IMG/VR virus record: IMGVR_UViG_2609459833_000014
Coordinates: 1 to 4,087 of that record
DNA from: a virus
Taxonomy: Duplodnaviria > Heunggongvirae > Uroviricota > Caudoviricetes
Direction: 5' to 3' (one strand)
Length of the DNA: 4,087 nt
The notes under the pieces are model-generated. The model was not told the DNA's origin. It saw nothing but the letters and a program-made list of their open reading frames with translations, and searched no databases. The translations under genes were made by a program, and so were the position numbers. The first letter of the stretch is position 1. Each line of letters opens with the position of its first letter. Of this stretch, positions 3,116 to 3,869 are shown piece after piece.

Positions 3116-3331
3116 ATGTATCAGATGGAAAAAATATCAACGGGCATAGCCTATGGTACTTCTGCGGGCAGTGCGGGTTACTGGTTTCTACAGTGGTTGG
3201 ATCAGGTTACTCCGTCACAGTGGGCTGCTATCGGGGTTTTGGGGAGCCTGTGTCTGGGGTTCCTGACATACCTGACGAATCTGTATTTCAAGATTAAAGA
3301 AGACCGGCGCAAAGCTGCGCGGGGAGAGTAA
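3116..3331 (+). CDS. S: Class II holin, phage-21-type pinholin (S21-like) with dual-start motif (Met1 and Met4)
   Basis: 71-aa product [71 protein letters not shown]. Almost identical to my recollection of phage 21 S21 ([35 protein letters not shown]...[13 protein letters not shown]). Two TMDs: a Gly/Ala/Ser-rich SAR-like TMD1 and a hydrophobic TMD2. G-rich SD upstream. Confidence 0.9.
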
Positions 3332-3335
3332 GCTG

Positions 3336-3869
3336 ATGAGCAGGAAACTCCACTATGGTTTATCGGTAGCCGTTCTGGCGCTGATTGCCACAGGTGCTTC
3401 TGCGCCTGAAATCCTCGACCAGTTTCTTGACGAAAAAGAAGGTAACCACACCACGGCATACCGTGATGGTGCGGGGATCTGGACCATCTGCCGTGGTGCC
3501 ATCATGGTGGATGGCAAACCTGTCGTCCCGGGCATGAAGTTGTCGAAGGAAAAATGCGCTCAGGTTAATGCCATTGAACGTGATAAGGCGCTGGCATGGG
3601 TGGAGAAAAACATCAAATTGCCACTGACTGAACCGCAGAAAGCGGGCATCGCGTCATTCTGTCCGTACAACATCGGGCCTTCGAAATGCTTCACCTCAAC
3701 GTTTTACCGGAAACTGAACGCCGGAGACCGGAAAGGTGCATGTGCTGAAATCCGCCGATGGATATATGACGGCGGCAGGGACTGTCGGAATCGCTCAAAT
3801 AACTGTTACGGGCAGGTATCGCGGCGTGACCAGGAGAGCGCGCTGGCGTGCTGGGGAATTGACAGATAA
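3336..3869 (+). CDS. R: SAR endolysin (T4-lysozyme-like muramidase, GH24) with N-terminal signal-anchor-release domain
   Basis: 177-aa ORF starting 5 nt after the holin stop, with SD ggggagag embedded in the holin 3' end. N-terminal weakly hydrophobic Gly/Ala/Ser-rich segment (YGLSVAVLALIATGASA). Catalytic triad with T4L spacing: Glu35 (codon 3438..3440), Asp44, Thr50 in EGNHTTAYRDGAGIWT. A pinholin paired with a SAR endolysin is the expected phage-21-type arrangement. Confidence 0.9.
   Translation: MSRKLHYGLSVAVLALIATGASAPEILDQFLDEKEGNHTTAYRDGAGIWTICRGAIMVDGKPVVPGMKLSKEKCAQVNAIERDKALAWVEKNIKLPLTEPQKAGIASFCPYNIGPSKCFTSTFYRKLNAGDRKGACAEIRRWIYDGGRDCRNRSNNCYGQVSRRDQESALACWGIDR

Follow-up and report, generated by a model that had tools for sequence, protein, structure and literature searches.

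A phage-21-family pinholin and SAR endolysin pair with an uncharged dual-start extension in a lambdoid prophage of Escherichia coli

Use of both of two nearby start codons has been reported for the S21-type pinholin genes related to that of phage 21 (PMC9636201), and the antiholin role of the longer product, S21-71, is credited in secondary sources to its extra basic residue (PMC9636201; bioRxiv 10.64898/2025.12.04.692442). The lysis genes considered here have the two starts and lack the basic residue, raising the question of what the longer product can contribute to the timing of lysis. They lie on a viral contig that makes up a whole IMG/VR record of 4087 bases. This entire stretch was analysed and is referred to below as the window; spanin genes were therefore sought in its relatives. 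The lysis genes are set in the following surroundings:

1-394: end of an IS1 element that includes InsA (65-340, minus strand)
414-2387: gene for a NanS-p-like sialate esterase with DUF1737, SASA and DUF6645 domains
2529-2723: DUF1378 gene, encoding a small membrane protein
2749-3039: DUF826 gene
3049..3087, plus strand: hairpin resembling an intrinsic terminator (stem of 12 bp and a T-run), lying between the DUF826 and holin genes
3960..3992, plus strand: second terminator-like hairpin (14-bp stem), 3' of the endolysin gene
From about 3993: start of a small open reading frame

The layout is Stx-phage-like and belongs to a lambdoid prophage of Escherichia coli. It shares with 933W and other Stx phages the esterase, DUF1378 and DUF826 context and the terminator upstream of the holin gene, a matching hairpin also preceding S in 933W-type loci. 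Unlike those phages, the window has no stx genes, and the end of IS1 stands about 20 nt ahead of the esterase start codon (414), at the position before the esterase beyond which, further upstream, the toxin operon of Stx phages lies. The terminal inverted repeat that we take to be that of IS1 ends at about 394, and the contig probably broke at this repeat. By analogy with lambdoid late operons, the terminator at 3049..3087 is presumably read through under Q antitermination, and a Q gene is found upstream in an E. coli relative of the window. The holin (S) and endolysin (R) genes form a tight pair flanked by the two terminator-like hairpins. One matching E. coli genome carries, in this order, Q, the esterase, DUF1378, DUF826, holin and lysozyme genes, two small open reading frames, Rz with an embedded Rz1, and terminase; in the relatives, Rz/Rz1 lie about 400 nt past the point at which the window ends. 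The two small reading frames, which have hydrophobic segments (71 and about 43 aa; 3993-4087 in the window, 5908-6269 in the related locus L338), separate the endolysin gene from Rz in these relatives, and 933W has an ant gene in their place. An Rfam search gave no credible match.

Within the lysis genes themselves, the following features were assigned:

3105..3114, plus strand: G-rich initiation region GGGGCGGGGA, with two G-runs
3116..3331, plus strand: class II pinholin of the P21 S family in its long form, 71 aa from Met1, with an MYQ extension that has no charged residue
3125..3331, plus strand: short form of the pinholin, 68 aa from Met4 (MEK...), the predicted effector
3336..3869, plus strand: SAR endolysin of the 933W R type, a T4-lysozyme-like muramidase of 177 aa
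3348..3407, plus strand: SAR segment, endolysin residues 5-24 LHYGLSVAVLALIATGASAP, uncharged, without Cys, 10 of 20 residues being G, A, S or T
3438..3485, plus strand: catalytic triad region E35-x8-D44-x5-T50, aligned with R21 structure 3HDE

An earlier note on this DNA, made from the letters alone, had read the two genes as a phage-21-type pair of pinholin and SAR endolysin. For the holin this reading was borne out. The protein matched PF04971 ("Bacteriophage P21 holin S"), the Pfam family of S21 itself, with 119.7 bits against a cut-off of 26 over profile positions 1-63 of 64, and it matched PHROG holin families with E-values of 3e-34 and 2e-32. A very short N-terminus leads into TMD1 (residues 7-28; 12 of 22 residues G, A, S or T; mean hydropathy 0.52), which is followed by TMD2 (residues 36-58; mean hydropathy 1.43), with a G40/S44/G48 face as in S21, and by a basic C-terminal tail. 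Met4, G40, S44 and G48 are all invariant in the pinholin alignment. The 92% identity to S21-type alleles suggests that the holes formed would be small (about 2 nm) and depolarising, too small to pass a folded endolysin. A single Cys is present in the pore-forming helix, Cys46 (3251-3253), instead of the Val of S21-type alleles. Few positions of the family vary as much as this one, which may be V, L, M, A, F, I or K, and the change is probably tolerated.

The partner gene starts 4 nt past the holin stop. Its product matched PF00959 ("Phage lysozyme") with 88 bits, was assigned by PHROG to endolysins, and found the structures of R21 (3HDE/3HDF) and RrrD (4ZPU) at E-values of about 1e-18 to 5e-19. 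The SAR domain and the E35/D44/T50 triad had both been named in the earlier note. The basic residues R3 and K4 stand just ahead of the uncharged SAR segment, and the triad aligns residue for residue with 3HDE. Pro at +1 disfavours cleavage by signal peptidase, and the endolysin has ASA followed by Pro at that position, which would argue against such cleavage here. What did not stand is the phage-21 label for this half of the pair: the endolysin belongs with 933W R, to which it is 90% identical and which has served as a SAR-endolysin construct (PMC9239132), whereas it is just 32% identical to the R21 type and 12 residues longer. It contains eight Cys (52, 74, 109, 118, 136, 150, 157 and 172), none of which falls in the SAR segment; a 7-residue insertion that R21 does not have (DCRNRSNNCY) accounts for two of them. 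This distribution suggests periplasmic disulfides not present in R21.

The S-R region as a whole is 100% identical to the annotated coliphages PhiR12_3 and PhiR12_4 and 99.9% identical to a third, PhiR5_2; its identity to Stx-converting phages, of which more than 200 matched, 933W included, is about 84%. Among 5426 complete E. coli genomes, 12 have a holin region at least 99% identical to that of the window (11 of them identical), with the PGAP label "class II holin family protein". The cassette is thus already deposited and annotated, and it is an ordinary pinholin/SAR-endolysin pair. Its parts have different affinities: the DNA of the holin body (about 3129-3310) is about 80-85% identical to S21-type genes and about 70% to 933W, whereas the leader, the head and the endolysin gene are 933W-like. 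The 30 nt ahead of the first ATG differ from those of 933W. Compared as proteins, the holin shows 92% identity over 71 aa to an S21-type allele, with no difference in TMD1, and 82% identity to 933W S. The differences from the S21-type allele are K2Y and S3Q, which turn MKS into MYQ, together with D5E, S32T, V46C and R61K. Judged by these identities, the holin gene of the window is a mosaic of an S21-like body and a 933W-like head, placed beside a 933W-type endolysin partner. The types of head, body and endolysin combine freely with one another over about 300 loci.

The head is where the question of timing arises. The dual-start layout described in the earlier note was found as in-frame ATGs at 3116 and 3125, which supply Met1 and Met4 of MYQMEK. 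The MYQ extension has a net side-chain charge of 0 against +1 for MKS of S21-type genes, and the same holds for MYQMEK against MKSMDK, so that the uncharged state of the extension was confirmed; Met-Tyr-Gln lacks the Lys or Arg that marks an S21-71-like antiholin. The Lys that the earlier note gave for the S21 extension is correct, and the difference is real: alleles with an S21 body start with MKSMDK. Part of these alleles adjoin 165-aa endolysins of the R21/RrrD type, and their body carries YWFLQW and LDQVSPSQ, both named as features of S21-68 (bioRxiv 10.1101/2021.04.20.440580). The S21-like body of the window holin has YWFLQW and LDQV(S/T)PSQ. Annotators differ as to the start: GenBank PV340552, from the depositors of PhiR12_3, begins the holin at Met4 (68 aa), whereas PGAP and most annotators choose the 71-aa form.

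In S21-68, the flip of TMD1 is tuned by N-terminal charge (bioRxiv 10.1101/2021.04.20.440580). Because MYQ has no basic residue, the 71-aa product of the window would be unable to use the charge mechanism of Lys2 in S21-71, and its antiholin activity is probably weak or absent. The uncharged head is nothing out of the ordinary. MYQMEK is the head of 933W S, MYQM heads occur in 933W and most Stx phages, and pattern scans of IMG/VR found MYQMEK on at least 120 contigs and MKSMDK on at least 119; MYQ is the standard head of 933W/Stx-phage pinholins. A full-text literature search found no published study of the MYQ head. The essQ gene of the Qin prophage in E. coli K-12 was considered as a further example and dropped, its head being MKSM.

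The signals for initiation were read only in part by the earlier note. It had placed a G-rich Shine-Dalgarno (SD) sequence 2 nt from Met1 and 11 nt from Met4; this spacing is correct for the proximal G-run (3110-3113), but a second, distal G-run (3105-3108), 7 nt ahead of ATG1, had been missed. The S21-type genes have the same two-block geometry, with GGAGG 7 nt and GAGG 2 nt ahead of ATG1. Since the geometry is common to S21, it is by itself no argument for a different mechanism.

The wider family provides a comparison of many natural extensions. Among the best 120 protein-cluster representatives, the extension was basic in 74 (MKS, MYR, MLR, MHR and MKF), uncharged in 19 (MYQ, MSQ, MFQ and MNQ) and acidic in 1 (MDQ), and family-wide about three quarters of extensions have Lys2 or Arg3. 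In a sample of one genome per species, Arg3 was invariant, with synonymous codon changes, in 20 distinct genes of the Arg3 clade. The Gln3 clade, to which MYQ belongs, was sampled by a scan that fixed codons 3 onward (in the MKS scan, codons 2-3 were set in advance). Among the matches listed, roughly 76% were MYQ, 13% IHQ, 5% MDQ and 4% MNQ, rough percentages because the viral-contig samples are rich in near-identical prophages. Codon 2 of this clade thus encodes Y, H, D or N, and it is the sole position of the N-terminus and TMD1 with four recurrent states. The pattern fits selection on the basic residue in most of the family, with loss of that residue in the Gln3 clade, where the extension looks relaxed, Met1 has gone in one lineage, and the spacing at the ribosome-binding site is better for Met4. 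The family-wide variation also strengthens the earlier suggestion of a different or absent antiholin timing mechanism, which is a reasonable one.

We consider it rather probable that the window holds the core of the late lysis cassette of an E. coli lambdoid prophage in which most of the product is the 68-aa form from Met4, which also acts as the effector, and the 71-aa form is at most a weak antiholin. By analogy with phage 21, the pinholin would insert into the membrane by its two transmembrane helices; the weakly hydrophobic TMD1 would then leave the membrane, and TMD2 would build small pinholes through which the membrane potential is lost. This depolarisation would free the membrane-tethered SAR endolysin, which would refold and cut the cell wall, and the spanins Rz/Rz1 would finish lysis. 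The time of lysis would be set mainly by the accumulation of the pinholin.

The alternative that survives best, in our judgement unlikely but to be taken seriously, is that the 71-aa product is a real antiholin acting without side-chain charge, so that the dual start is still a working timer. Exit of TMD1 could be delayed by the longer N-terminus as such, by Tyr2 as an anchor at the membrane interface, or by the positive charge of a deformylated alpha-amino group; White and colleagues are said to have described in 2010 a role for deformylation in lambda S107, the amino group there adding positive charge. None of the MYQ, MDQ and MNQ haplotypes sampled has lost ATG1, while many other codons vary, and the long form could therefore still be under selection. 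The S21 two-block SD geometry is preserved as well, and in a nanopore screen polar uncharged N-terminal substitutions also slowed the activation of S21-68 (bioRxiv 10.1101/2021.04.20.440580). However, the freedom of codon 2 (Tyr, His, Asn or Asp) speaks against a charge-free function of the extension, the more so as Asp should hasten the exit of TMD1, following the "negative-outside" trend, and so does the conservation of the basic residue in other clades. The IHQ lineage, moreover, does without Met1: among the matches listed, its ATG1 is replaced by ATA, so that Met4 is the only start left, with GGAG 11 nt upstream of it. Its members are pinholins with a 933W body, ATA CAT CAG standing for ATG TAC CAG behind a different leader (loci L312, L313, L316 and others; L033 in Escherichia albertii), and their endolysin partners are of the R21 type, the 933W type or another type.

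A further reading, improbable in our view, departs from the preferred one in denying the longer product altogether: Met1 would be essentially unused, Met4 would give the single product, and the upstream ATG would be a relic within the ribosome-binding region. The proximal G-run lies just 2 nt from ATG1, the IHQ lineage keeps the same 11-nt spacing without ATG1, and the 68-aa form is the one entered in the PhiR12_3 record by its depositors. The anti-SD also pairs less strongly with the leader in the window (at best -6.9 kcal/mol) than with the GGAGGTG of S21-type genes (-10.8). A crude home-made thermodynamic model (hybridisation with a penalty for spacing and a cost for unfolding), which takes no account of competition between two starts 9 nt from each other and is uncalibrated on the S21 ratio, favours Met4, with Met4/Met1 values of about 3 in the window, about 5 in 933W and 0.03-1 in basic-head genes. 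It thereby gives modest support to the earlier proposal that Met4 is the main start. Against disuse of Met1, the distal G-run at 7 nt provides ATG1 with a usable spacing, as GGAGG does in S21-type genes, and the predicted bias is only about 3-fold in a crude model.

The leader was also searched for a structure that could govern the choice of start. In S21-type, DLP12-type, MYR, MLR and 933W-type leaders, the distal SD block (SD1) forms the 3' arm of a short predicted hairpin. For the window, the leader folded no better than shuffled sequences (z -0.73), and SD1 paired upstream with a probability of 0.38 against a shuffle mean of 0.40, in a per-sequence test that is only suggestive because shuffled pyrimidine-rich leaders, too, often pair with G-rich SDs (shuffle mean about 0.5). 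RNAalifold on a MAFFT alignment of 15 leaders, in which the hairpin arms were misaligned, found no consensus hairpin. In contrast to S21, then, the window has a weaker SD and no demonstrable SD-sequestering hairpin.

The G-runs before ATG1 differ in length among near-identical relatives (GGGGCGGGGAT, GGGGCGGGAT, TGGGGCGGGAT and GGGGGGCGGGAT), and every such change alters the distance from SD to start by a single base, which may reflect either natural adjustment of start choice or errors in sequencing homopolymers. Where relatives have one G less, the ATG that corresponds to 3070 falls in frame with the holin, and an 86-aa protein, MAFFLSGSTGLLGRD-MYQMEK..., has been called, probably a gene-calling artefact. 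In the window this ATG was rejected as a holin start, being out of frame and within the terminator stem.

That timing has moved to the DUF1378 protein (gene at 2529-2723), perhaps with that of DUF826 (2749-3039), acting in trans on the pinholin, is extremely improbable: within 1.2 kb upstream, the DUF1378-DUF826 pair was found solely ahead of Gln3-head holins (about 62 of the roughly 300 loci examined) and ahead of none of about 136 MKS, MYR or MLR heads, but it is missing from about half of the MYQ loci, a terminator lies between the pair and S, Pfam and PHROG searches found no homology to a known antiholin, and the association is expected from linkage, its likeliest cause, head and upstream flank being inherited as one mosaic block. 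The broader proposal that Gln3-head pinholins as a group lost a charge-based intragenic antiholin and are timed in trans by the co-inherited DUF1378, perhaps also DUF826, is very improbable too.

Set beside the known systems, the cassette thus stays closest to phage 21 in its holin and in the order of its parts: Met1/Met4, two SD-like blocks at equal distances, and a SAR lysozyme with E35/D44/T50 directly after the holin. The head and the endolysin tie it to 933W and the Stx phages, and Stx2a-phage holins have been classed as P21 S family pinholins (PMC10462455). The likeness to lambda S105/S107 lies in one gene with two nearby starts. In lambda an RNA hairpin sets the ratio of the two products. 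That system belongs to an unrelated family of class I, with three TMDs, large holes and a soluble endolysin partner. The longer lambda product is inhibitory through an extra basic residue (PMC9636201), which the extension in the window lacks.

The cassette itself is nothing new; few lysis systems have been studied as thoroughly as the one to which it belongs. Its uncharged head, shared with the pinholins of 933W and the Stx phages, is a common natural variant and no peculiarity of the window. The explanation of the S21 antiholin by an extra basic residue would therefore be inapplicable to a large natural group of pinholins that includes the 933W type. With a holin body close to that of S21 behind a different head, the window offers a convenient natural test allele, a near-isogenic "head swap" of S21, for the question that this group raises: whether dual-start control of timing may be dispensable in pinholins, or may work without charge.
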